Shown: one piece after another, positions 925 through 59,839 of the stretch
Position numbering within the stretch: the first letter of the stretch is position 1
Layout: each line of letters starts with the position of its first letter
Source: Pseudomonadota bacterium
GTDB lineage: Bacteria > Pseudomonadota > Gammaproteobacteria > Burkholderiales > Burkholderiaceae_E
DNA length: 64,000 nucleotides
Direction of reading: 5' to 3'
NCBI GenBank assembly: GCA_039800205.1
Contig: JBDLRB010000049.1
Location: 6,464-70,463, forward strand
The notes under the pieces: model-generated
The model's database searches: none
What the model saw: the letters and a program-made list of their open reading frames with translations, nothing else
Told to the model about the DNA's origin: nothing
Made by a program: the position numbers and the translations under genes

Positions 925-1683
925 ATGAGTCGATCGGGCGAGCCCGCTGCGCGCACCCGTCCCGCAGGCGTTCTGCGCGTGATACCCACCCTGGCCGCGC
1001 TGGCCTTGATCATCCTGACCGTTTCGCTGGGAAACTGGCAGATGCGCCGGGCGGCAGAAAAAGAGCAGGCTCAGCAGCGCCTCGATCAGGCGGCGGCCGC
1101 CCCACCCATCGTACTGGGGTCGGAGCGGAGGCTGGGTCCCGACGACCTCAATCGCCGGGTCAGTCTGGTGGGTGAGTGGTTGAGTGCGCACACCGTCTTT
1201 GTCGATAACCGTACTTGGCGTGGGCACGCCGGATTTCATGTCGTGACCCCCGTTAAAATAGAAGGGTCGGGTCAGGTTGTGCTGGTCCTGAGGGGTTGGG
1301 TGCGAGGCGATCCGGCGCAGCGCAATCGATTGCCCGATCTCGGTGCGGCTGCCGAACGGGTTCGGATCGAGGCCCGGGTCGAGGCCGACTTTCCTCAGAC
1401 CCTTGAGTTATCCAGAGGCGCGGTACTGGGCCCGGAGGATCGCCTGTGGCAGAACATCAGCCGAGCCCGTTTCGAAGCGTGGTCCGGTGTGACGGTCGCG
1501 CCCGCGATCCTGCGACAGACGGCCGCGATGCCCGATGATCAGCTGATCCGCGAGTGGGTGCTGCCGGGTTCGGGGGTGGACAAGCATCACGCGTATGCGG
1601 CGCAGTGGTACGGACTCGCGCTGCTGGTTGCAGGTCTCTGGATCGGTTTGACCGTGCGAAGGAAGTCTGGAAAGGCATCATGA
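925..1683 (+). CDS. SURF1 family cytochrome oxidase biogenesis protein
   Basis: 252 aa with N- and C-terminal TM helices. Contains the LGNWQMRRAAEKE motif and C-terminal HHAYAAQWYGLAL. Sits in the cox assembly cluster. Confidence 0.8.
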   Translation: MSRSGEPAARTRPAGVLRVIPTLAALALIILTVSLGNWQMRRAAEKEQAQQRLDQAAAAPPIVLGSERRLGPDDLNRRVSLVGEWLSAHTVFVDNRTWRGHAGFHVVTPVKIEGSGQVVLVLRGWVRGDPAQRNRLPDLGAAAERVRIEARVEADFPQTLELSRGAVLGPEDRLWQNISRARFEAWSGVTVAPAILRQTAAMPDDQLIREWVLPGSGVDKHHAYAAQWYGLALLVAGLWIGLTVRRKSGKAS

Positions 1684-2291
1684 CGACGTCTGTTTCTTCA
1701 GTGAGCCCCCCGGGAGGCCACCGCGTGCGCGGGCGGCTCAAGCTGGCGCTGATTCTCCTGGCCTGTGCTGCGCCCGTCCTGGCGTCCTACTTCACGTACT
1801 ACGTCCTGCGGCCTGAGGGCCGAACCAACTACGGTGAGCTGATCGAGCCGCAACGGCCCGTCGGCGACGTACCGGTCGTCACGCTCGAGGGTGAGGCGCG
1901 CACCTTCTCCAGCCTGAAGGGAAAGTGGCTGATGGTCACGGCAGCGTCCGCCGACTGTTCAGGGGATTGCCCCGATCGGCTGCTCCAGATGCGACAGGTG
2001 CGGCTCATGACCGGGCGTGAGCGCGACCGGATCGAACGCGTCTGGCTGGTGACCGATCCGGCGGTGCCCCGCCCCGCCATGCTTGAGCCCCATGAGGGGC
2101 TTCAAGTGCTGCGCGTCGACGCCCAAACTTTCGCTCGGCATTTTCCGGCCGCCCCAGGCGGCGATCCGACCCGTCACATTTTCATCATCGATCCGCTCGG
2201 CAATCTGATGATGCGGTTCCCCGGCGCCGCCGAGCCTGCTCGCATGAAGAAAGACCTGAGCAAACTGCTGCGCGCCTCGCGCATCGGTTGA
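1680..2291 (+). CDS. membrane-anchored CxxxC protein of the cox assembly cluster (SCO/thioredoxin-fold-like, function unknown)
   Basis: ATGA overlap with the SURF1 stop (ATG 1680, TGA 1681-1683). Has an N-terminal TM helix (LKLALILLACAAPVLASYF) and a CSGDC motif. This is the conserved slot between SURF1 and ctaA. Confidence 0.5.
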   Translation: MTTSVSSVSPPGGHRVRGRLKLALILLACAAPVLASYFTYYVLRPEGRTNYGELIEPQRPVGDVPVVTLEGEARTFSSLKGKWLMVTAASADCSGDCPDRLLQMRQVRLMTGRERDRIERVWLVTDPAVPRPAMLEPHEGLQVLRVDAQTFARHFPAAPGGDPTRHIFIIDPLGNLMMRFPGAAEPARMKKDLSKLLRASRIG

Positions 2292-2319
2292 TCACCGCAC
2301 CCTGGCAGACGAGTCAAGT

Positions 2320-3372
2320 ATGTCCACTGATTCATTCCGTTACCCTGAGTCTGAACCCGGTCGCCCTGCGCTGGTCCGCTATGCCCGACTGATCGGATTC
2401 ACCGCAGCCCTCACGCTGCTGTTGATCATGATCGGTGCCTGGGTCCGATTGACCGACGCGGGGCTCGGCTGCCCGGACTGGCCGGGCTGCTACGGCAAAC
2501 TGACCCCGAAGGGCGCGAGCACGCAGATTGCGCAGGCCGTGGCCGAGCAGGGCGGTGAGCACGGTCCCGTATCGATGGGCAAGGCGTGGCGTGAGATGGT
2601 GCATCGCTACATCGCCTCTTTTCTCGGACTGCTGATCATCGCCATCGCGGTGGCCGCCTGGCGGCTCAGAACACGACTCGATCAGCCGCCCGGCTTGCCG
2701 CTGGCGCTGGTGGGTATCGTCATCTTTCAGGGTCTGTTGGGCATGTGGACGGTCACCCTGCTGCTCAAGCCCGCCATCGTCACCTTGCATCTGGCCGGCG
2801 GGCTCCTCACCTTTGCCTTGCTGGTCTGGCTCTACTGTCGCCAGGTTCGTGAGCCGCGTCTGCGTGATCCGGAACTGTTGTACGAGTTACGGCGTCCTGC
2901 GGTGATCGGACTGGTTTTGCTCTGCGCTCAGATCCTCCTGGGCGGCTGGACCAGCACCAATTACGCGGCGCTCGCGTGTACCGATCTGCCGACCTGTCAG
3001 GGACGCTGGTGGCCCGAGATGAATTTTGCCGACGCCTTTCATGTCATTCGTGAGCTGGGACGAACGAGCGATGGCGAGTTCCTGCCCATGCAGGCCCTGA
3101 CGGCAATCCACATGATGCATCGGATCGGCGCCGTGCTGGTCCTGGGCTGGCTCCTCTGGCTGGCGGTGCGCCTGATGCGGACCGAGGGCGCGCGCGACCT
3201 GGGGCGTGCGATTCTGGCCATGGTGGTGCTGCAGTTCTGCCTGGGCCTGTCCAACGTCTGGTTCAGCTTGCCGATCAATGTTGCGGTCGCCCACACTGGG
3301 GGCGCCGCCCTCCTGCTGGCCTTGATGGTGGTGCTAAACTTCAGGGTTGCTCGAGCACCGCTTCAGATCTGA
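2320..3372 (+). CDS. ctaA: heme A synthase (COX15/CtaA family)
   Basis: 350 aa, polytopic. Contains the [12 protein letters not shown] motif and conserved His-containing helices. Confidence 0.85.
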
Positions 3373-3382
3373 ACGCCCACCC

Positions 3383-4279
3383 ATGCAACTGTCCCAGTCC
3401 CGGTACGCTGCCCTTCGGCACGTCATTCGACAGTACTACGAGCTGACCAAGCCCCGCGTGGTCATGCTGGCGGCGTTTTGCGCACTGATCGGCATGCTGC
3501 TCGCCACGCGTGATCCGATTCCCTGGACCGTGCTGGTGGCCGGCATCGCCGGGATCTCGCTGCTGGCCGGAGCCGGCTTCGCATTCAATTGCCTGATCGA
3601 GCGCAGCATCGATGCGCGGATGGCGCGGACCCGCGCTCGTCCCTTGCCCCGAGGCGAGGTCGGGGTGACCGGCACAATTATTTTCGCAGGCGTGATCGGC
3701 GGCATCGGGTCGTTTCTGCTCTATCAATACGTCAATGCGCTCACGATGTGGCTGACCATGGCCACTTTTGTCGGCTATGCCGTCATCTATACGGTGCTCC
3801 TCAAGCCGGCCACACCCCAGAACATCGTGATTGGCGGGGCCTCGGGCGCCATGCCCCCGCTCCTGGGCTGGACGGCGGTTGCCAACGAGGTCACCGCGCC
3901 CGCTCTGGTGCTCTTTCTGATCATCTTCGTCTGGACGCCGCCGCATTTCTGGGCGCTCGCGCTCTATCGCATCGAAGACTACCGCCGCTCCGGTCTGCCG
4001 ATGTTGCCCATCACCCACGGCCCCGAGTTCACGCGACTCAATGTGCTGCTCTACACGATCCTGCTGGTGGCCGTGAGCCTGCTGCCCTTCATGATCCACA
4101 TGAGCGGACTCTTCTATCTGATGGCCGCGCTCGCGCTCGGGATCGTGTTCCTGGTGTACGCCTGGCGGTTGTGGCGTCAGTACAGCGATGCGCTCGCCCG
4201 CAGAACCTTCAGTTACTCGATCTTCTACCTTGCCGCACTCTTCGGTGCCTTGCTGATCGATCACTATCTGAACGCATGA
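3383..4279 (+). CDS. ctaB: protoheme IX farnesyltransferase (heme O synthase)
   Basis: UbiA-family motifs ([31 protein letters not shown]). Start set at ATG 3383, after the ctaA stop at 3370-3372. Confidence 0.9.
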
Positions 4280-4893
4280 AGCCGAATTCTGAGGGGCGCT
4301 ATCCGGATGCCCTCCGGCGGGTGCTGTTGCTGGCGCCTGCCGCAAGCGGGCTCCTGAGCGCATGCGGGGCCCGGCCCGCGCCCTTTCAGAACACCGACAT
4401 CACGGGCGCCGATTTCGGCAAGGATTTCAGCCTGACCGATCATCACGGCAGAGTGCGTCAACGGGCTGACTTTCGTGGCCGGATCCTGACCGTATTCTTT
4501 GGCTACACACAGTGCCCGGATGTCTGTCCGTCGACGCTGTCCGAAATGGCTCAGGTGATGAGTCAGCTGGGTGAGCGGGCCGCGCAGGTTCAGGTTGCGT
4601 TCATCACCGTTGACCCGGAGCGGGACACCCAGGCGCTCCTGGCCGAGTATGTGCCGGCCTTTCATCCGAGTTTTCTGGGTCTGCGGGGCGATCTCGAGAC
4701 CACGGCTCGTACGGCCAAGGCGTTCAGGGTGTTCTACCAGAAGGTCAAGGGCAAAACCCCCGACCAATACACGATCGACCACACCGCCGGCAGCTATGTC
4801 TACGACCGCCAGGGTCGGATCAGGCTGTTCATCAAGCATGGCACCGGGCCGGCGCCGATTCTGGCCGACCTCCGGCGCTTGCTCGACGAGTAA
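4276..4893 (+). CDS. SCO1/SenC family copper chaperone
   Basis: ATGA overlap with the ctaB stop. Has a lipoprotein-like signal (LLSAC) and the [11 protein letters not shown] CxxxC motif plus a downstream DHT. Only the C-terminal 205 codons of the 434-aa ORF are real. Confidence 0.85.
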
Positions 4894-6968: not shown

Positions 6969-8045
6969 TCAGCCCAGGAGCGCCGTCGAGAACTCCCGGG
7001 CGCTGAAGGCCTGGAGGTCATCCAGCCCTTCTCCAACCCCGATGAAGTAGACCGGGATCGGGCGTTCGCGACGCTGATGGGCCAGCGCAACGATGGCGCC
7101 GCCCTTGGCTGTGCCATCGAGCTTGGTGATGATCAGGCCCGTCAGATCGAGCGCTTCGTCGAAGGCCTTGACCTGAGCGAGCATGTTCTGTCCGGTGTTG
7201 CCATCGAGCACCAGCAGGATCTCGTGCGGCGCGCCGTCCAGGGCCTTGCCCGTCACCCGTTTGATCTTGCGCAGTTCTTCCATGAGGTGAAGCTGGGTGG
7301 GCAGTCGACCCGCCGTGTCGATGATCACGACGCCGGTGCGCCGAGCTCGGGCGGCGCTGACCGCGTCGAAGGCGACCGCCGCAGGATCACCGCCCTGTTG
7401 CGCGATCACCTCGACGCCGTTGCGCTCACCCCAGCGAGCCAATTGCTCGCGTGCCGCGGCCCGAAAGGTATCGCCTGCGGCGAGGAGGACCGACTTGCCC
7501 TCGGCTTGCAGGTGGCGCGCAAGCTTGCCGATCGAGGTGGTCTTCCCCGCACCGTTGACGCCGGCGATCATCATGACCAGCGGCTCGGCCCGGTCGATGT
7601 CAACGGGCTTTTCCATGGGCGCAAGGAGCGACTCGACCATCTCGCGAAGCGCGGCACGCAGGGCCTCGCCGGTCTCGATGCGGTCGGCGCGGGCCGTGCG
7701 TCTGAGGGCTTCGATCAGCCATTCGGTGGTGGCCACACCTGCGTCACTGGCCAGCAATGCGGTCTCGAGCTCTTCGTAGAGCGCCTCATCGACACGGCTG
7801 CCGGTGAAGATCGTGGTGAGCGTCGACCGGGTGCGCGCCAGTCCGCCCTTCAGGCGATCGAGCCAGGACAGGCGCTCTGGCCGAGGCGTCTCGGGATCGG
7901 AAGCGGTCTGGGTCGCCGGGGCTCCGGAAACGGGCGTTCCCACCTCCTGTCCAGACGAGGGCAAGACGGGCGAAGGAGGACTGGGGGCCTGCGCCTGATC
8001 AGGCTCGTCGACAACAGGTCTTTTGCGGCGCAGGAATCCGAACAT
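6969..8045 (-). CDS. ftsY: signal recognition particle receptor FtsY
   Basis: C-terminal NG domain with GVNGAGKTTSIGKLA, DTAGR and TKLDGTAKGG. Has an acidic/Pro-rich N-terminus. ATG 8045 (MFGFLRRK) is preferred over the TTG at 8057. Confidence 0.9.
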   Translation of the reverse strand: MFGFLRRKRPVVDEPDQAQAPSPPSPVLPSSGQEVGTPVSGAPATQTASDPETPRPERLSWLDRLKGGLARTRSTLTTIFTGSRVDEALYEELETALLASDAGVATTEWLIEALRRTARADRIETGEALRAALREMVESLLAPMEKPVDIDRAEPLVMMIAGVNGAGKTTSIGKLARHLQAEGKSVLLAAGDTFRAAAREQLARWGERNGVEVIAQQGGDPAAVAFDAVSAARARRTGVVIIDTAGRLPTQLHLMEELRKIKRVTGKALDGAPHEILLVLDGNTGQNMLAQVKAFDEALDLTGLIITKLDGTAKGGAIVALAHQRRERPIPVYFIGVGEGLDDLQAFSAREFSTALLG

Positions 8046-8097
8046 GGCTACACTCAAAATTCAATTCTAACCCGCACCTTTTCCGACCCGCTCTTCG

Positions 8098-9516
8098 ATG
8101 TCACCCGCCTGTTCGACCGCTTTTCGCTCTGGCTGCTCCCGGATCCGAACCACGCCGCTTCGGGCGCTGTGGCTGGGCCTGATCGGGCTCTGCATCAGCT
8201 CGGCCGTGTGGGCCCAGACCGTCGTGGAGTCCACGCTCGAAAACGGTCTCAAGGTGCTGATCAAGCCCGACCGTCGCGCGCCCACCGCCGTACAACTGCT
8301 GGCGTATCGGGTGGGTTCGGTGGACGAACATAACGGGGTGACCGGTGTGTCGCACCTGCTCGAGCACATGATGTTCAAGGGCACCCCCACCGTCCCGGCG
8401 GGCGAGTTCTCACGAAGGGTGTCGGCCGCGGGGGGGCGCGACAATGCCTTCACCTCGAGGGATTACACCGGCTATTTTCAACAGGTGCCGCGCGCCAGCC
8501 TCGCTACGATGATCGCACTGGAGGCCGATCGGATGACGCACCTGGTCCTGAAGCCCGGTGACTTTGCCACCGAGCGGGAAGTCGTCATCGAGGAGCGCAG
8601 ACTGCGGACCGACGATCGCGCGCGGGCGCTCGTCGCCGAGCACTTGATGGCGCTGGCCTTTACCGCGTCGCCCTATCGCCAGCCGATCGTGGGCTGGATG
8701 AGCGATCTGCAGTCGATGACCCTGGGTGATCTCGAGGATTGGTATCGCAAATGGTATGCACCGGGCAATGCAACCCTCGTGATCGTTGGCGACGTTGACC
8801 CCGATGCGGTACTTGATCAGGTCCGCCAGCATTACGGCGCAATTGCGGCTCGGTCCCTGCCTCCCAGAAAGGCACAGGCCGAGCCCGTGCAGCGCGGATT
8901 GCGCCAGGCCGTCGTCCGCGCGCCTGCGGAGAACCCCTACCTGTTGATGGCCTTCAAGGTGCCGGGTCTGTCGGACGTCGAGGCAGAGACCGATGCCTTT
9001 GCGCTCGAAATGCTGGCTGCGGTCCTGGCGGGCGACGACAACGCTCGTCTCGCCCGTCAGCTGGTTCGGGTCGATCGGGTGGCCGATCAGGCTTTTGCAT
9101 CGTATGACATGACCGGTCGAGGGCCCTCGCTCTTCATGCTGGGCGGCGTACCGGCTGCAGGGCAGTCCGTGACGGGGCTGCGCCGGGCGCTGGTCGAGCA
9201 GGTCCGCCGAATCGCCGAGCACGGCGTCGAGGTCAATGAACTCGAGCGCCTGCGGATCCAGTACGTGGCGTCCCGCATCTATCAGCGGGATTCGCTGATG
9301 GCTCAGGCGACCGAGCTCGCCGGGCTCGAAATGGCGGGCCTGGGCTGGCGAGCGGCCGATCGTCTGCTCGAGCGGATTCGTACCGTGACGCCCGAGCAGG
9401 TACGACGGGCGGCGGGCAAGTATTTCTCCGAGGATCAGCTGACGGTGGTCGAGCTCGATCCACAACCCGTCGCGTCGGTGCGCCCTGCCGGGCGTTCGTC
9501 CGACCGTCCCCACTGA
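8098..9516 (+). CDS. M16 family zinc peptidase (catalytic subunit, secreted)
   Basis: Signal peptide ending AVWAQ. Inverted zincin motif HLLEHMMFKG (HxxEH). Confidence 0.85.
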   Translation: MSPACSTAFRSGCSRIRTTPLRALWLGLIGLCISSAVWAQTVVESTLENGLKVLIKPDRRAPTAVQLLAYRVGSVDEHNGVTGVSHLLEHMMFKGTPTVPAGEFSRRVSAAGGRDNAFTSRDYTGYFQQVPRASLATMIALEADRMTHLVLKPGDFATEREVVIEERRLRTDDRARALVAEHLMALAFTASPYRQPIVGWMSDLQSMTLGDLEDWYRKWYAPGNATLVIVGDVDPDAVLDQVRQHYGAIAARSLPPRKAQAEPVQRGLRQAVVRAPAENPYLLMAFKVPGLSDVEAETDAFALEMLAAVLAGDDNARLARQLVRVDRVADQAFASYDMTGRGPSLFMLGGVPAAGQSVTGLRRALVEQVRRIAEHGVEVNELERLRIQYVASRIYQRDSLMAQATELAGLEMAGLGWRAADRLLERIRTVTPEQVRRAAGKYFSEDQLTVVELDPQPVASVRPAGRSSDRPH

Positions 9517-9537: not shown

Positions 9538-10893
9538 ATGCGCCTTGCCCTGCCCATCCCGTCGATCCGGCCTGTGGCGCTCACGCGACGGCTCCGAATA
9601 CTGATCGCGCTGATCCTGGCTGTGCTCCTGCCCTCCGCCTGGGCTGCGCTGCCGATCGAGCGGTGGACCACTTCGACCGGAGCGAAGGTGTTGTTCGTTC
9701 GCTCAGACGCCATCCCAATGATCGACCTGGCGATTCATTTCGATGCCGGTGGCCGTCGCACTCCGATCCATCAGGCGGGTCTGGCCTCGCTGGCGGCCGA
9801 GCTGCTCGACGCGGGGTCGGGCGAGCTCGACGAGGACACGATTGCCGATCGTTTTGCCCGTACCGGGGCGCAGCGTTCGGCCAGCGCCAGCGCAGACGGA
9901 GCCTCGATCACGCTGCGCAGCCTGTCCAGTGATCGCGAGCTCGATGCGGCGCTGGGTCTGCTGTCCCGGATTCTGTCTTCGCCCAGCTATCCGCAGGCGG
10001 TTCTGGATCGCGAGCGCGCCCGGATGATCGCGCGCCTGCGCGAAGCCGACACCCAACCGGGATCGATCGTTCGGCGACGTTTCGCCGAACAGGTCTTCGG
10101 CGACCATCCTTACGGCCGAAGCGCGACCGAAGCCAGCCTTTCGGCGATCACCCGCCAGGCACTGCTGGATTTCCATGCGCGCCATTACACCGCCTCGCGC
10201 GCGGTCATTGTGATGATCGGCGCGGTCAGCCGCCTCCGGGCGGAGTCGATCGCAGAGACGCTGTCGAGCGATTTGCCGACCGGCGAGCCCGGGGCGCTTC
10301 CGGTTGCGGAAGCGCCCGCGCCTGAGCCCCGGGTGCTCCGGGTGGCCCACCCAGCCTCGCAGAGCCATATTCTGATCGGTGCCCGGGGCATTGCCTACGG
10401 GGATCCCGATCTGTTAGCGCTCCAGTTGGCCAATCATGTGCTGGGCGGAGGGGGATTCACGTCGCGTCTGTATGCCGAGATTCGTGAAAAACGGGGTCTG
10501 GCCTACAGCGTCTACTCCTATTTTTCCCCGGGTATGCAGCCAGGACCGTTCACGATCGGCCTTCAGACCCGTAAGGACCAGGCCGACCAGGCCCTCGCGG
10601 TGGTCCGTGCGACGCTTGATCGCTTTGTTCGCGAAGGCCCGAGCGAGGCCGAGCTCGATGCGGCCCGCGCCAATCTGATCGCGGGCTTTCCCCTGCGACT
10701 CGACTCGAACCGCAAGATTCTCGGGCAGCTCTCGTTGATCGGTCTTCATGACTTGCCCACGGACTGGCTCGAGCGCTGGACCGAGCGTCTGGCCGCGGTG
10801 TCCCGGGACCAGGTCATGAAGGCCATCGCCCGTCACATCGATCCCGACCGAATGGTGACCGTTGTCGTCGGTGCACCGGATCCCGTGCGCTGA
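9538..10893 (+). CDS. M16 family peptidase-like protein (no HxxEH motif, probable non-catalytic partner)
   Basis: Signal peptide ending SAWA. M16 fold-like repeats (RLYAEIREKRGLAYSVYS). I found no HxxEH motif. In tandem with the preceding M16 gene. Confidence 0.8.
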   Translation: MRLALPIPSIRPVALTRRLRILIALILAVLLPSAWAALPIERWTTSTGAKVLFVRSDAIPMIDLAIHFDAGGRRTPIHQAGLASLAAELLDAGSGELDEDTIADRFARTGAQRSASASADGASITLRSLSSDRELDAALGLLSRILSSPSYPQAVLDRERARMIARLREADTQPGSIVRRRFAEQVFGDHPYGRSATEASLSAITRQALLDFHARHYTASRAVIVMIGAVSRLRAESIAETLSSDLPTGEPGALPVAEAPAPEPRVLRVAHPASQSHILIGARGIAYGDPDLLALQLANHVLGGGGFTSRLYAEIREKRGLAYSVYSYFSPGMQPGPFTIGLQTRKDQADQALAVVRATLDRFVREGPSEAELDAARANLIAGFPLRLDSNRKILGQLSLIGLHDLPTDWLERWTERLAAVSRDQVMKAIARHIDPDRMVTVVVGAPDPVR

Positions 10894-26396: not shown

Positions 26397-26426
26397 ACGG
26401 GGCCGGATGGACCCGGTCGGCCCCGT
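26397..26426. terminator. GC-rich hairpin between convergent genes
   Basis: ACGGGGCCG (12-nt loop) CGGCCCCGT, immediately after the Bug gene stop and 5 nt before the FAD gene stop. Confidence 0.4.
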
Positions 26427-26431
26427 GACCC

Positions 26432-27814
26432 CTATCCCGTCACTCGCGCGATCGACTCGCCGCAGATCAAGCCCAGCCCGAAGGATTGCGCGAGCCCGTT
26501 GCCCGGTAGATAGCCGGCGCCGCCGATCCCCGAGATGGATGCGGCCGCTCCGCCCGCGGCATAGAGGCCGGGAATCGGCTGGCCGACTGCATTCACGACT
26601 CGGCCCATCGTGTCCACCCGCAGGCCGCCCTGCGTGTGGGCCAGCGCACCGGTCACCCACGCTGCGCGCAGGGGCGCCTGCAAGGCCGGGCCGAAGCGCT
26701 TTCGGCCCATCTCCGGATCGTTGCCGGCCGCGACGTACCCGGCAAAATCGGCGAAGGTTTTCGCGAAGACAGCGGGGTCGATATCGAACAGTCGCGCGAG
26801 CGCCTCGGGGCTGTCGGCCTCTTTGACATGACCCGCCTCGCAGGCTTCCCGATAGGGGCCCTGGCGCGAAGCGATTTCGTGAACACGCTGATCGAACACC
26901 TCGAGCGCGACGCCACCAGGTTGTGCCAGCACGAACGCGCCCAGCTCTGACGGACCGATGTCCTCTGCGATAAATCGACGGCCGGTCTTGTTGACCATGA
27001 AGGCACCGAGCGACGGGAGCGCCATCCCCAGTCGGGTCTTGCCGCCCGGGTTGACGTGGCCTTGACCCTGATAGCCCTGCATGAAGGCCACATCGGCACC
27101 CAAGTCGCGCGCCCAGACGACCGAGCAGCCATCATTGGCACCCGCCCCGATATGCATCGCACCCGCCATGTCCGGGATGTACTGAGCCAGCAGTTCCGGG
27201 TTACTCGCGAATCCTCCTGTGGCAAGCAGGACGCTCGCTGCCCGGAAATCCCGCACTTCGCCTCCGACTCGGGCCTGCACACCGGTCACACGCCCAGCGT
27301 CACTCAGTAAGCCCACGCCTTCGGCATCGGCAAGTAGCCGGATTCCGGGTTCGCGGCTTACAGCGTCCCGCAGCAATTGATGAAGTTCACGCCCACTTTC
27401 CTTGGGCGTCGCATGAATCCTGGGGATTGAATGCCCAGGGACCTGCAGATCGGGTAACCATTTGATCGGCAGCCCGATCTCGTCGATCAGAAAGTGAACG
27501 GCCGGCGCCGTTTGTCGCGCGATCGCATCCAGGATTGGTGGATCCACGATGCCTTCCGCCTTGGCCGTGACATCGGCTGCAAAACGCTCTGGGCTGTCGA
27601 TCACCCCGGCCTCAGCCTGAAACCGGGTGCCAGCACCCGGGAACAGGCCGCCACTCACCAGCAAATTGGACGGCCCATTGAGATCGCGTTCGAGCAGCAG
27701 GACGGTGACCCCCCGGCGGGCGGCGACCAGCGCAGCAAACAGTCCGGCGGCGCCGGCGCCGACGATGATCGAGTGGGCATTGGGATCGGAACGAGCGGGT
27801 GCTTGATGGGTCAT
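26432..27814 (-). CDS. FAD-binding oxidoreductase (fumarate reductase / succinate dehydrogenase flavoprotein-like)
   Basis: N-terminal dinucleotide fold SIIVGAGAAGLFAALVAARRGVTVLLLE and C-terminal GLYAAGGAA motif. 460 aa. Confidence 0.7.
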   Translation of the reverse strand: MTHQAPARSDPNAHSIIVGAGAAGLFAALVAARRGVTVLLLERDLNGPSNLLVSGGLFPGAGTRFQAEAGVIDSPERFAADVTAKAEGIVDPPILDAIARQTAPAVHFLIDEIGLPIKWLPDLQVPGHSIPRIHATPKESGRELHQLLRDAVSREPGIRLLADAEGVGLLSDAGRVTGVQARVGGEVRDFRAASVLLATGGFASNPELLAQYIPDMAGAMHIGAGANDGCSVVWARDLGADVAFMQGYQGQGHVNPGGKTRLGMALPSLGAFMVNKTGRRFIAEDIGPSELGAFVLAQPGGVALEVFDQRVHEIASRQGPYREACEAGHVKEADSPEALARLFDIDPAVFAKTFADFAGYVAAGNDPEMGRKRFGPALQAPLRAAWVTGALAHTQGGLRVDTMGRVVNAVGQPIPGLYAAGGAAASISGIGGAGYLPGNGLAQSFGLGLICGESIARVTG

Positions 27815-27821
27815 GGCGGAA

Positions 27822-27839
27822 TCAGACGTTGAACCGGAA
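27822..27839. repeat. left copy of 18-bp direct repeat TCAGACGTTGAACCGGAA
   Basis: Identical to 28935-28952, and 20/21 if extended to 27842 / 28955. Lies 7 nt upstream of the FAD gene ATG. Confidence 0.9.
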
Positions 27840-28125
27840 ATGGAATTGGTAAGGGTTTGTTTTTATTCACAAACACCCGCCTCGGTGTCGAGACATGGAT
27901 TATCCCATCGAAGCGTCGCTCACACCAGGCAGAGCGCCTCGCCCACAGTCTTTCGCCGGCGGGTGCGAATACCGCGGATCCCAACACAGAATCCGGAGTT
28001 CGTTGTAGACATGAAGGCTTTGCACTAGGCTGGACGGGATCCGCCGCTCGCAGGCTCGGACGGTGCGGCGCTTCCTGCTCGTGCGCGCCAAGGTGGGACG
28101 CATGAAATCCCGTTGCGGAACGACA

Positions 28126-28539
28126 ATGGCCGAAGACAAGATCGACCTGGGCCCACTTGAACGAGCGATCGATCGCTTGAGCGAAGGCTGGGATCGTTAT
28201 CTGCGGGACACAAGTGACACACAAATCAGAGATGGACTGATTCAACGGTTTGGATTCACCTATGAAATCAGCCACAAGATACTCAAGCGTTACCTGGAAT
28301 CCGTTTCGGCGAACCCGGCAGTCTTTGACGAAATGAGTTTTCAGGATTTGATCCGGTCAGGCAATGAACAAAACCTGCTCCTGGGCGAATGGCGTGAATG
28401 GAGGCGCTACCGTGAGCTGCGATCCAAGACCAGTCACACCTATGATGAAACCACTGCGTTGGACGTCGTGGGCGGCATTGCGCCATTTCTCGCAGAGGCG
28501 CGCGCTCTGCGTGACCAACTCAAGGCGCGACTGGCATGA
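28126..28539 (+). CDS. HEPN domain protein, HI0074 family (nucleotidyltransferase substrate-binding protein; HepT-like toxin)
   Basis: Contains RELRSKTSHTYD (the Rx4HxY motif). About 137 aa and all-helical in composition. Paired with the MNT gene. In-frame ATG 28102 is an alternative start. Confidence 0.8.
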   Translation: MAEDKIDLGPLERAIDRLSEGWDRYLRDTSDTQIRDGLIQRFGFTYEISHKILKRYLESVSANPAVFDEMSFQDLIRSGNEQNLLLGEWREWRRYRELRSKTSHTYDETTALDVVGGIAPFLAEARALRDQLKARLA

Positions 28540-28865
28540 AGCGGAACATACCGCCGATCGAAATCGAGCCCGAGCACTGGGTCATCGTGCACGACACATT
28601 GCAAAAATATGTGCCGCAGTATGAGGTGTGGGCCTTTGGCTCCCGCGCGCGCGGCCAGGCCAAAAAATTTTCAGACCTGGATTTGGCGATCATGACGGAC
28701 CGGCCGCTCACGCTGGATGTCAGTGCGGGTCTGCGTGACGAGTTCTCCGAATCCGATCTGCCGTGGAAGGTGGATACCGTCGATTGGGCGTGTACCAGCG
28801 AGTCGTTCAGGGCGATCATCGAACGAGACAAGGTGGTGGTCAAGCGTTCGGGGGCGCTCGCCTGA
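28536..28865 (+). CDS. minimal nucleotidyltransferase (MNT, MntA-like antitoxin)
   Basis: ATGA overlap with the HEPN gene. Contains FGSRARGQAKKFSDLDLAI (the GSxxxG ... DxD Pol-beta superfamily motif). 109 aa. Confidence 0.85.
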   Translation: MKRNIPPIEIEPEHWVIVHDTLQKYVPQYEVWAFGSRARGQAKKFSDLDLAIMTDRPLTLDVSAGLRDEFSESDLPWKVDTVDWACTSESFRAIIERDKVVVKRSGALA

Positions 28866-28934
28866 CGCGGTGACGACAGACCCTCGGGGGGCGCGGGGCG
28901 CACGGCTTCAGCCCCGTGTCGGTACCCCCGACCG

Positions 28935-28952
28935 TCAGACGTTGAACCGGAA
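28935..28952. repeat. right copy of 18-bp direct repeat (equals ychF last five codons plus stop, reverse strand)
   Basis: The reverse complement TTCCGGTTCAACGTCTGA encodes FRFNV followed by the stop. Confidence 0.9.
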
Positions 28953-30029
28953 GTGCATCACGTCGCCATCCTTGAGGACATAGTCCTTGCCCTCCAGCCG
29001 CATCTTGCCCTTTTCCTTGGCGCCCGTTTCGCCCTTGCACGCGACGTAATCGTCAAACGCGATGGTCTCGGCCCGGATGAAGCCGCGTTCGAAATCCGTA
29101 TGGATCACACCGGCCGCCTGCGGGGCGGTGGCGCCAACGCGAACGGTCCAGGCGCGCACTTCTTTCTCGCCCGCCGTGAAATAGGTCTGCAAGCCAAGCA
29201 GCTTGAAGGCCGCGCGGATCACCCGATTGAGCCCGGGCTCGCTCATGCCCATGTCGTCCAGGAAGACTTGCTTGTCCGCGTCATCCATATCTGCAATTTC
29301 GGCTTCGATCGCCGCGCAGACCGGCACGACGATCGAGCCCTCGCGCGCCGCCAGCGCACGCACGGCCTCAAGGTGTGGATTGTTTTCGAACCCATCATCG
29401 CGCACGTTGGCGACATACATCGCGGGCTTTGCGGTGATCAGGCACAGCGGACGAATGAGGGCCTTTTCCTCTTCATAGAGGTCCAGCGAGCGGACGGGTC
29501 GTGCCTCATTGAGCACGGCCATACACTTCTCAAGCACGGGTACCAGGCGCTGGGCGTCCTTGTCGCCGCCGGCGCGCGCGACCTTGGAATAGCGGACCAG
29601 TGCCTTGTCGACCGTTACGAGATCCGCGAGCGCGAGCTCGGTATTGATGATCTCGATATCCGACAAGGGATCGACCCGACCGCTGACGTGCACTACATTG
29701 CCATCTTCGAAACAACGCACGACATGTGCGATCGCGTCGGTTTCCCGAATATTGGCGAGAAACTGGTTGCCCAGGCCTTCTCCCTTGGACGCGCCCGCAA
29801 CCAGTCCAGCGATATCAACGAATTCAACGGTCGCGGACAATACCTTTTGCGGTTTGACGATATCGGCCAGGGCCTGCAGCCGCGGATCGGGGACCTCGAC
29901 AATGCCGACGTTGGGCTCGATCGTGCAAAAGGGATAGTTCTCGGCCGCAATCCCCGCCTTGGTCAGCGCATTGAACAGAGTGGACTTACCGACGTTGGGC
30001 AGCCCAACGATACCGACCTGGAGGCTCAT
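28935..30029 (-). CDS. ychF: redox-regulated ribosome-binding ATPase YchF
   Basis: Starts [18 protein letters not shown]. Has the C-terminal TGS/YchF domain ending VMHFRFNV. 364 aa. Confidence 0.95.
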
Positions 30030-57407: not shown

Positions 57408-59839
57408 CGGCGACCCGAGCAGCGGCAGGGGGGCCGGATGCACCGGGCCTGATCCACGAGCTGGAGGCCGACCACCCGGACTTTGATGCGCAGCTTGGGC
57501 GTCTCCTCGCTTGGGAGGCCGCCCAGGACGACTCAATCCGCCAGACCGTTGCCGACATTCTGTCGCAGGTGCGCGCCCGAGGCGATGAAGCGCTCCTCGA
57601 CTACACCCGCCGTTTCGATCGACTGGCGGTGGACGCTGCGGCCGGGCTGGAGTTGAGCCGGGCTGAACTTGACGCAGCGCTCGCCGGGTTGAGCGAGCAG
57701 GCGCGCGACGCCTTGATGGCCGCAGCAGACCGAGTCCGGTCCTACCACGAGCGCCAGTTGCTTCGCTCCTGGGACTATGTCGAACCGGATGGCACCCGTC
57801 TGGGTCAGAAGATCACGCCGCTTGATCGGGTGGGTCTGTATGTCCCGGGAGGCAAGGCGGCCTATCCCTCATCGGTTCTGATGAATGCGCTGCCGGCCCG
57901 TGTGGCGGGTGTGGGCGAGCTGATCATGGTCGTCCCCACTCCCGACGGGGTGCGTAACCCGCTGGTCCTCGCCGCGGCGGCCGTGGCCGGGGTCGATCGC
58001 GTGTTCACGATCGGCGGTGCGCAGGCCGTGGCCGCGCTCGCCTGGGGTACGCAGACCATTCCGGCCGTTGACAAGATCGTCGGGCCCGGGAACGCCTATG
58101 TCGCCGAGGCCAAGCGGATGGTCTTTGGCACGGTCGGCATCGACATGATTGCGGGTCCCAGCGAGATCCTGGTGATCTGCGAGGGTCAGGCCGACCCCGA
58201 CTGGGTCGCCATGGATCTGTTTTCGCAGGCTGAACATGACGAGCTTGCACAGGCGATCCTGATCAGTCCTGATCGGGCGTTTCTTGCTCGTGTCCGCGAG
58301 GCGATCCAGCGCCGTTTGCCCACGATGGCCCGGCGCGCCGTCATCGAACGATCCCTGGCCGATCGCGGCATGCTCATTCACGTACCGGACATGGAGGCCG
58401 CGTGCCGCATCGCCAACCGGATCGCCGCCGAGCATCTCGAAATCATCGCTGAGGACCCGGGTCGTTGGGCCCACCGGATCCGTCATGCCGGGGCCATGTT
58501 CCTGGGGCCCTACGCCTCCGAGTCGCTGGGCGACTACTGTGCGGGCCCCAACCATGTGCTGCCGACCATGCGTACGGCGCGCTTTTCATCCCCGCTGGGC
58601 GTGTACGACTTCCAGAAGCGGACCTCGATCATCGAGGTGTCCCGCGCGGGCGCGCAGTCCCTGGGGCGGATTGCATCCACGCTGGCCCGGGCCGAGGGCC
58701 TCGAGGCGCATGCGCTGAGTGCCGAGCTGCGTCTCGAGGGCAGCGGATCGGCGGTCGGGTCCGGGACGCCCGACCTTGGGACCGCAGCGGTCGTGCGCGA
58801 TGAAGTCCGTGCGATGTCGTCGTACCACGTCCCGCCCGCCGAGGGTCTGATCAAGCTCGACGCGATGGAAAATCCCTATCGCCTGCCCGAGACCCTGCGT
58901 GATGCCCTGGGCAGACGTCTGGCGGATGCCTTGATCAATCGTTACCCGGTGCCCAGCTATGCGCGGCTCAAGTCGTTGCTGCGCAGCCGGATGGCGATGC
59001 CCGCTTCGTGCGAAGTTCTGCTGGGCAATGGCTCGGACGAGCTCATCTCGATGGTGCTGACCGCGTGCGCGCGTCCGGGCGCAGTCGCCCTCGCGCCCGT
59101 TCCCTCGTTCGTGATGTACCGCGTGTCGGCCGAACTGGCGGGGATGCGTTTTGTCGGGGTCCCCCTGGCGGCTGACCTGGGCCTGGACGTCGACGCGATG
59201 ATTGATGCGATTCAGCGTCATCGGCCGGCAGTCGTCTTCATTGCCTTTCCCAACAATCCGACCGGCAACTGTTTTGATCGGGCGGCAATCGAGCGCGTGA
59301 TCGCCGCTGCGCCCGGCCTGGTGGTCCTGGATGAGGCCTATCACCCGTTTGCGCAGGCAAGCTGGATGGATCGCCTGCCGGACCACCCCAGATTGCTGGT
59401 CATGCGTACGCTCTCCAAGCTCGGTCTGGCTGGGCTTCGGCTCGGCTACCTGGCGGGCGACCCGCGCTGGATCAATGAGTTTGACAAGGTTCGACCGCCC
59501 TACAACATCAGCGTGCTGAACGAAATCGCCGCGGAATTCGCTCTCGAGCATCTTGAGGTGCTCGACGAACAGGCGACGATGATCCGGGCCGAGCGCGCCC
59601 GCCTGTCGGCCGAACTGGCCCAATTGCCGGGCCTTCAGGTCTTGCCGTCTTCGGCCAATTTCCTGCTTGCCCGGGTCCCGGATTCGGCGGATGCCCACCG
59701 GCGGCTCAAGGCTGCAGGCGTTCTGGTGAAGGACGTCGGTACAATGCACCCCCTGCTTGCAAACGCGCTGCGCCTGACCGTCGGAACCCCCGAAGAAAAT
59801 CGGGCGCTGGTCGACGCCCTCCGGGCAGTGCTTCGCTGA
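57404..59839 (+). CDS. hisD-hisC: single 811-codon ORF fusing histidinol dehydrogenase (N-terminal, about 445 aa) with histidinol-phosphate aminotransferase (C-terminal, about 350 aa)
   Basis: The HisD part ends ...[16 protein letters not shown]. The linker is [14 protein letters not shown]. The HisC part begins [18 protein letters not shown]...LDAMENPY and contains the PLP-Lys context [17 protein letters not shown] read codon by codon across 58721-58816 and found no stop. Confidence 0.8.

Follow-up and report, generated by a model that had tools for sequence, protein, structure and literature searches.

A HEPN–MNT gene islet bracketed by a duplicated ychF terminus as a candidate relic of site-specific integration

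Decayed integrative elements that keep their attL and attR attachment (att) sites and are without integrase and transfer genes are called cis-mobilizable elements (CIMEs) (PMC5704250). Integrative elements of several kinds have been met beside ychF: pipolins with large serine recombinases adjoin it in Actinobacteria (PMC11551731) and a pneumococcal prophage has a 14-bp attB in its promoter (PMC6375853); these cases share their landmark with the locus described here and differ from it in recombinase class or in the side of the gene that is used, as well as in phylum. We analysed a 64,000 nucleotide stretch of DNA from a Burkholderiaceae_E bacterium (assembly GCA_039800205.1, contig JBDLRB010000049.1, positions 6,464 to 70,463; called “the window” below, with its first nucleotide as position 1), in which a 1095 bp islet that carries one HEPN–MNT gene pair is flanked by direct repeats, one of which is the intact 3′ end of ychF. 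The islet resembles CIMEs in these repeats, in having no recombination or transfer genes, in its small cargo and in its foreign composition; it differs from them in that the window holds no partner element or integrase, no accretion or tandem structure was seen, and one repeat copy is decaying in a sister species, so that the islet is possibly a dead relic and not mobilizable. It fits the CIME definition, though it is probably no longer mobile. We read it, with a probability of about 0.55, as a fixed, integrase-less relic of site-specific integration of the tyrosine-recombinase type at the ychF 3′ end, a mechanism that we infer from the features described below.

The two flanking copies share an exact 18-nt direct repeat, TCAGACGTTGAACCGGAA, at positions 27822–27839 and 28935–28952 of the + strand, and when extended they match at 20 of 21 positions; an earlier note on this DNA had reported both the coordinates and the identity, and they proved accurate. 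The right (proximal) copy, 28935–28955 on the − strand, consists of the last six codons of ychF (HFRFNV) and its TGA stop, and the note’s assignment of the 18-mer to the last five codons plus stop (FRFNV, stop) holds in the 364 amino acid YchF open reading frame (ORF). The left (distal) copy, 27822–27842, is non-coding (inspection of the sequence shows no ORF that enters it) and lies 7 nt upstream of the ATG (27814) of an FAD_binding_2 oxidoreductase gene, here called the FAD gene, a spacing that had also been given correctly. The sole mismatch in the extended repeat, CAT versus CAC, is a synonymous histidine difference in the ychF frame, and in spite of it the left copy still translates as HFRFNV-stop; exactly these 21 nt end the ychF gene of another species (L004; contigs and loci used for comparison carry L numbers). 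Likeness between the two copies ends abruptly beyond 21 nt, which fits an att core better than a decayed segmental duplication. A third copy was found in the window neither for the 18-mer on either strand at up to three mismatches nor for the 21-mer at up to five; there is hence no sign of tandem islands, and the 18-mer, present only twice in the window, does not look like the dispersed repeat that the earlier note had considered as an alternative.

Could such a pair have arisen by chance in GC-rich DNA? At arbitrary places the window holds two other exact direct repeats of 17 nt and seven of 16 nt (the most closely spaced of these, a 16-mer at 59124–59139 and 59604–59619, has a spacing of 480 nt). 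Given these, the 18-mer is only marginally the longest, and an initial estimate of “0 expected” for it overstates its significance. The length of 18 nt is by itself unremarkable, and it is position that makes the pair non-random: for any one gene terminus, the probability that an exact 18-nt copy falls within 1.2 kb is ~1.5e-7, or ~2e-5 when every gene end of the window is counted. The repeat begins at the ychF stop, is 7 nt away from the start of the next gene and brackets the lowest-GC segment; its 21-nt extension retains the histidine codon, and a homologous, partly decayed copy stands at the same place in a sister species (below). A chance origin is highly improbable.

The 1095 bp between the repeat copies (27840–28934) are the lowest-GC segment of the window. 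The islet has 58.5% G+C, compared with 64.5 ± 2.1% for all 1095-bp segments of the window, and so falls within the lowest 0.6%; the ten segments of that size with the least G+C all overlap it. Hand counts that had first pointed to an AT-richer insert (27/60 and 63/120 inside, 83/120 in the flanking gene) are exact, and the G+C content at third codon positions is 0.59 in the HEPN gene versus 0.72–0.77 in neighbouring genes. The claim that the insert carries only the HEPN/MNT pair likewise held up, as no remnants of integrase, primase or helicase genes were found in the islet or elsewhere in the window, and no transposase domains or inverted repeats at the islet ends. A transposon, insertion sequence or miniature inverted-repeat transposable element (MITE) was considered as the source of the islet and rejected, because there are no inverted repeats at its ends, there is no transposase, and the 18–21-nt repeat is over the typical target duplication length. 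The usual transposon target duplications are typically 2–15 bp.

The cargo was identified from protein family and structure matches. The HEPN gene (28126–28539, + strand, 137 amino acids) is a member of the HI0074/NTase_sub_bind family (PF08780, E 6e-30; TIGR01987 score 73.7, cutoff 55.8; PDB 1JOG, which is HI0074, E 1e-16); its homologs are likewise 137 amino acids long, and its Rx4HxY motif is intact as RSKTSHTY at residues 99–106 (nt 28420–28443). The MNT nucleotidyltransferase gene (28536–28865, + strand, 109 amino acids) is of the HI0073 family (PF18765 and PF01909; PDB 1NO5, which is HI0073, E 2e-30), has an intact GSx10DxD motif, GSRARGQAKKFSDLD, at residue 35 (nt 28638–28682), and has a start that shares 4 nt (ATGA) with the HEPN stop. 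In type VII toxin-antitoxin systems the MNT protein AMPylates the HEPN toxin. The window pair is like those systems and like HI0073/HI0074 pairs in its families, its PDB matches, its two motifs and its overlapping genes, and unlike them in its gene order, HEPN then MNT, and in a score of 42.7 bits with the MntA antitoxin equivalog model NF047752, which is under the cutoff of 60; we place the window MNT in the HI0073 branch and not with the MntA equivalogs. By homology, the HEPN protein is a predicted RNase toxin that the MNT protein would neutralise as in type VII systems.

An association of HEPN proteins with type I restriction–modification (R-M) operons has already been described (PMC3710099). 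The nearest HEPN homologs outside the species are 71–77% identical in amino acid sequence, and in every context that was fetched (L098–L105, unrelated contigs) they lie between hsdM and hsdS of a type I R-M operon, whereas the window pair stands alone. DNA homology to these embedded loci is limited to 28120–28846, that is, to the two genes, and the 283-bp spacer between the left repeat copy and the HEPN gene has no hsdM/hsdS or other R-M remnants. The HEPN–MNT cargo thus distributed is horizontally mobile. In several of the L098–L105 loci the MNT is fused to HsdS by the gene caller, and the PADLOC “Specificity_I” model matches the window MNT at 2e-21.

All eight independent same-species assemblies, which come from seven samples, have the islet with both repeat copies; the structure is therefore not an assembly artefact, and the islet is fixed. 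A sister species (L084, FAD protein 95% identical) has the same islet, with a HEPN protein 89% identical, the spacer, a left copy TTTCGATTCAACATCTGA, the same 7 nt and then the ATG. Identity between the window and L084 is 92% for FAD, 89% for HEPN, 82% for the spacer and 18/21 for the 21-mer (the L084 left copy differs from the window by three substitutions and one indel), and 33 of the 44 differences in HEPN are at third codon positions. These segment identities show that the insertion is older than the split between the two species; they also show purifying selection on the toxin gene and, for the left copy in L084, a drift like that of neutral DNA. Among Logan contigs, L108 ends at window position 28955 and L114 begins at window position 27837, so that they break at or inside the repeat copies; such breaks might reflect population variation at the junctions.

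On the reading that we favour, an incoming element would have borne an attP whose core matched the last ~18–21 nt of ychF (candidate core ...TTCAACGTCTRA; attB-like sequence ...TTCAACGTCTGA). Recombination would have kept ychF intact at one junction (28935–28955), and the other junction (27822–27842) would have received the second, non-coding copy of the ychF tail. The recombinase and other element genes would have been deleted, or would never have been carried if an integrase acted in trans, and the remainder would be a CIME-like islet whose sole cargo, the HI0074/HI0073-type HEPN–MNT pair, is still under selection. Such a pair could favour retention of its carrier DNA, and our best reading is that the islet has been retained because of the selected HEPN–MNT module.

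Is the ychF 3′ end used by integrases elsewhere? Our screen covered the ORFs downstream of ychF in 80 species loci. P4-type tyrosine integrases (Arm-DNA-bind_3, Phage_int_M and Phage_integrase domains) lie ~195 nt after the ychF stop in L011, L072, L115–L122, L131 and L132; the L011 integrase (7096–8561) begins 195 nt past the stop, a truncated homolog (7093–8133) occupies the same spot in L072, and in none of these loci does a tRNA gene separate ychF from the integrase. The family has 6379 matches at E below 1e-30 and is 84–98% conserved in amino acid sequence, and every integrase context that was retrieved is at the same distance after ychF; the hosts include Pseudomonas sp. SJZ079, and L131 and L132 are IMG/VR contigs. 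The integrase gene is preceded by a conserved GGATTCCGsyGG motif, an intrinsic terminator and 3–5 arm-type repeats (CCGGGTAY or GCGGGTAY), and the cargo of these elements often looks defence-like (SIR2, an Hsp70-like protein with TPR) and further comprises primase/helicase genes. L131 seems to be complete and satellite-like: besides the integrase, its 7.2 kb encode a DnaD-like initiator, a DnaB helicase and a Phage_tail_S protein, and at its far end two arm repeats are followed by GAATTTTGTTTTAACGTCTGA, a degenerate ychF tail (7050–7070), and then by a terminator. A search of 135 kb with a degenerate ychF-tail pattern recovered the L131 site, its other matches being nearly all true ychF ends, and the null gives 2 matches. 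In Beta- and Gammaproteobacteria the ychF 3′ end is a true attachment region of elements with P4-type tyrosine integrases; the literature that we searched holds no description of a ychF-targeting P4-like integrase family for Proteobacteria. The window locus has the same target gene end as these elements and, like L131, runs from gene end through cargo to a copy of the gene tail; its segment 27822–27842 is like the ychF-tail copy at the far junction of L131, the window repeat (18/18) being much longer and cleaner than that of L131.

Two small similarities at the repeat borders were also seen. The 9-mer CGGTCGGGG stands immediately after the ychF stop in the window (28926–28934), in L007 (7096–7104) and in L063 (7111–7119), and GATTCCGCC, beyond the left copy (window 27815–27824), is similar to the GGATTCCGCC motif of the integrase elements. 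The recurrence of the first and the likeness between the second and third could be chance or faint att homology.

Relatives of the window species differ in what lies between ychF and the FAD gene. L085 (YchF 90%, FAD 82%) has ~2 kb between the two, with a frameshifted SLFN_AlbA_2/HATPase_c_4/HTH gene (3468–4884) and no second ychF-tail copy (a degenerate copy upstream of its FAD gene is not significant, p = 0.68); retention of both copies by relatives without HEPN/MNT had been named in the earlier note as an observation that would speak against insertion, and L085 has one copy. L086 shares the end of the L085 SLFN_AlbA_2/HATPase_c_4 gene upstream of FAD, where it also has an AAA_21 + DUF4276 pair (PADLOC HEC-01A/B, a defence candidate) and a SWI2/SNF2 fragment (1427–3243), and there is no ychF in the 3.9 kb that its contig holds. 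FAD relatives of ~80% identity (L123–L130) keep the FAD-TctC-Ogt-racemase block, but upstream of FAD they carry a PrpD cluster and a second, divergent FAD gene in place of ychF; the protein database holds no FAD relatives at 82–95% identity. GTDB relatives with YchF at 86–88% have unrelated metabolic genes after ychF, and none of the 80 GTDB ychF loci has a second ychF-tail copy within 6 kb. The ychF/FAD junction thus compared is a lineage-specific synteny breakpoint with variable toxin-antitoxin- or defence-type cargo.

A number of observations weigh against site-specific integration. The islet lacks an integrase and arm-type repeats; set beside the P4-type elements, the window has no integrase gene, arm-type repeats, GGATTCCGsyGG motif or terminator after ychF, and its ychF ends in TGA and not TAA. 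No protein or DNA similarity was found between the islet and the ychF-targeting elements, and comparison of the islet flanks with the integrase-element arms gave nothing significant (p = 0.2–0.9); no recombinase that would act on this att core is present in the window, and the ychF-end integrases of other taxa have no link to the 18-mer. Two separate deletions would have been required to strip element genes from both flanks of HEPN/MNT. The distal ychF-tail copy of the integrase elements is suggestive, coming as it does from one complete element in which the copy is degenerate: the search pattern has a false-positive rate of ~1–2 per 135 kb, a generic local-alignment test does not single out the L131 distal site, and no distal copy was found within 10 kb for L118, nor a distal att within the 10-kb flanks of L115 and L121. 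Neither the relatives nor the eight same-species assemblies showed an empty site or an excised form. An empty site of ychF stop, 7 nt and FAD ATG (predicted junction ...GTGATGCACTTCCGGTTCAACGTCTGATTCCGCCATGACC; predicted circle junction ...CCCCCGACCGTCAGACGTTGAACCGGAAATGGAATTGG) had been expected in relatives, and the sites recovered by exact-protein look-ups with YchF, FAD and MNT were all filled and of the same species; a look-up of HEPN as a one-residue-longer ORF gave no match. The operon-like ancestral ychF-FAD junction that had been proposed is unverified, since the FAD relatives of ~80% identity are without ychF upstream. Finally, the duplication could stem from a rearrangement, as synteny breaks at the ychF/FAD junction itself. 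Of the proposal that the repeat is an att-type target duplication left by site-specific insertion, the parts that stand are thus the duplication of the ychF terminus, the foreign DNA and the integrases at ychF ends elsewhere; the empty site and any sequence shared with integrase elements are missing.

A rearrangement account would hold that a non-site-specific event (illegitimate or microhomology-mediated recombination, staggered-break repair or an unusually long target-site duplication) joined a pth-ychF block to a FAD-TctC block at a breakpoint and trapped a HEPN/MNT fragment from a defence locus, with no dedicated recombinase or att site involved. The lineage-specific adjacency of ychF and FAD, with other neighbours on either side in the ~80% FAD relatives and the GTDB relatives, agrees with this, as do the lack of integrase remnants, arm sites and inverted repeats in the islet, the confinement of homology with other HEPN/MNT loci to the two genes, and a breakpoint just 7 nt from the FAD ATG, the FAD gene having no native upstream region common to other clades. 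However, integration at gene 3′ ends classically leaves an 18–21-nt duplication of this sort, with the reading frame and stop of the conserved, essential-type gene kept exactly, the repeat is longer than the target duplications that transposons usually make, and integrases use the same gene end elsewhere. We consider such a breakpoint event, the main rival to our reading, possible and rather unlikely.

The 18-mer includes GTTGAAC, which fits the integron core GTTRRRY, and the islet might on that ground be taken for a gene cassette that an integron integrase inserted at such a core in the ychF tail. HEPN proteins are known as integron cassettes (PMC3710099), and L007 (YchF 82%, a Burkholderiales metagenome-assembled genome) has, ~300 nt past the end of ychF, an integron integrase that is frameshifted or partial. 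Yet intI is absent throughout the window, the islet 3′ end has no attC-like fold (z about 0) and folding energies at the junctions match those of shuffled sequence; a degenerate 7-mer match is expected by chance in ~2% of 18-mers, and integron recombination does not produce 18-nt repeats. We regard a cassette origin as highly improbable. The L007 integron integrase (7391–7926; TIGR02249, E 1e-31 and 5e-35) is on the strand opposite ychF, and ~100 nt of the ychF-downstream DNA of L007 are common to L085.

The islet might instead still be mobilizable, as a minimal HEPN–MNT addiction module with functional att sites on which integrases of the L011/L131 kind act in trans; more broadly, such pairs would then pass as discrete cassettes from R-M operons of type I to att sites at gene ends, or the reverse. 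This seems very unlikely to us, and the suggestion in the earlier note of a minimal self-stabilising cassette finds no support: nothing points to current mobility, and the insertion is fixed and of old date and, in the sister species, decaying.

The remainder of the islet consists of two spacers. The longer, between the left repeat copy and HEPN (27843–28125, 283 bp), is non-coding and holds two blocks conserved with L084, TTGTAG-N17-TAGGCT at 28003–28031 on the + strand and GATAAT at 27897–27909 on the − strand, which resemble divergent promoters. It has no match in Rfam at E up to 1, no homologs were found besides L084, and it contains no conserved ORF, as its stop-free stretches differ between the window and L084. 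This spacer is probably the source of divergent promoters that serve HEPN/MNT on one side and the FAD gene on the other, and the FAD gene may be transcribed from inserted DNA through the GATAAT block; the conservation of both blocks supports a putative FAD promoter within the islet. The shorter spacer, between the convergent MNT and ychF stops (28866–28934, 69 bp), is 78% G+C and has a CGGGGC...GCCCCG hairpin that may be a bidirectional terminator, its fold being no better than that of shuffled sequence.

Of the flanking genes, ychF (28935–30029, − strand) encodes an intact protein of 364 amino acids with MMR_HSR1 and YchF-GTPase_C domains. The FAD gene on the far side of the islet (26432–27814, − strand) encodes 460 amino acids and has no Shine–Dalgarno sequence at its start (27815–27821 checked). 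In the same-species contig L001, ~894 bp of GC-rich nested palindromic repeats (9633–10526, corresponding to window 26397–26431) lie between the FAD and TctC stops; this array has terminal inverted repeats of ~35 nt, the window and L002 hold one short copy only, and it looks like a strain-variable expansion of the repetitive extragenic palindrome (REP) or MITE kind.

What does the locus mean for our view of such islets? It looks like an ordinary kind of genomic islet, of the decayed gene-end type with toxin-antitoxin cargo, and specialists in mobile elements will find nothing surprising here. The most reusable result is the widespread, highly conserved P4-like integrase family that recurrently attaches at the ychF terminus, and the ychF end is a further gene-end hotspot where annotators may check for islands and defence cargo. 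If the reading of the islet as a relic of site-specific integration is true, it would be a clean, small case of toxin-antitoxin or defence cargo that has outlived the mobile element that delivered it, persisting as a fixed islet at the 3′ end of a conserved gene, where it may even provide the promoter of a neighbouring metabolic gene.

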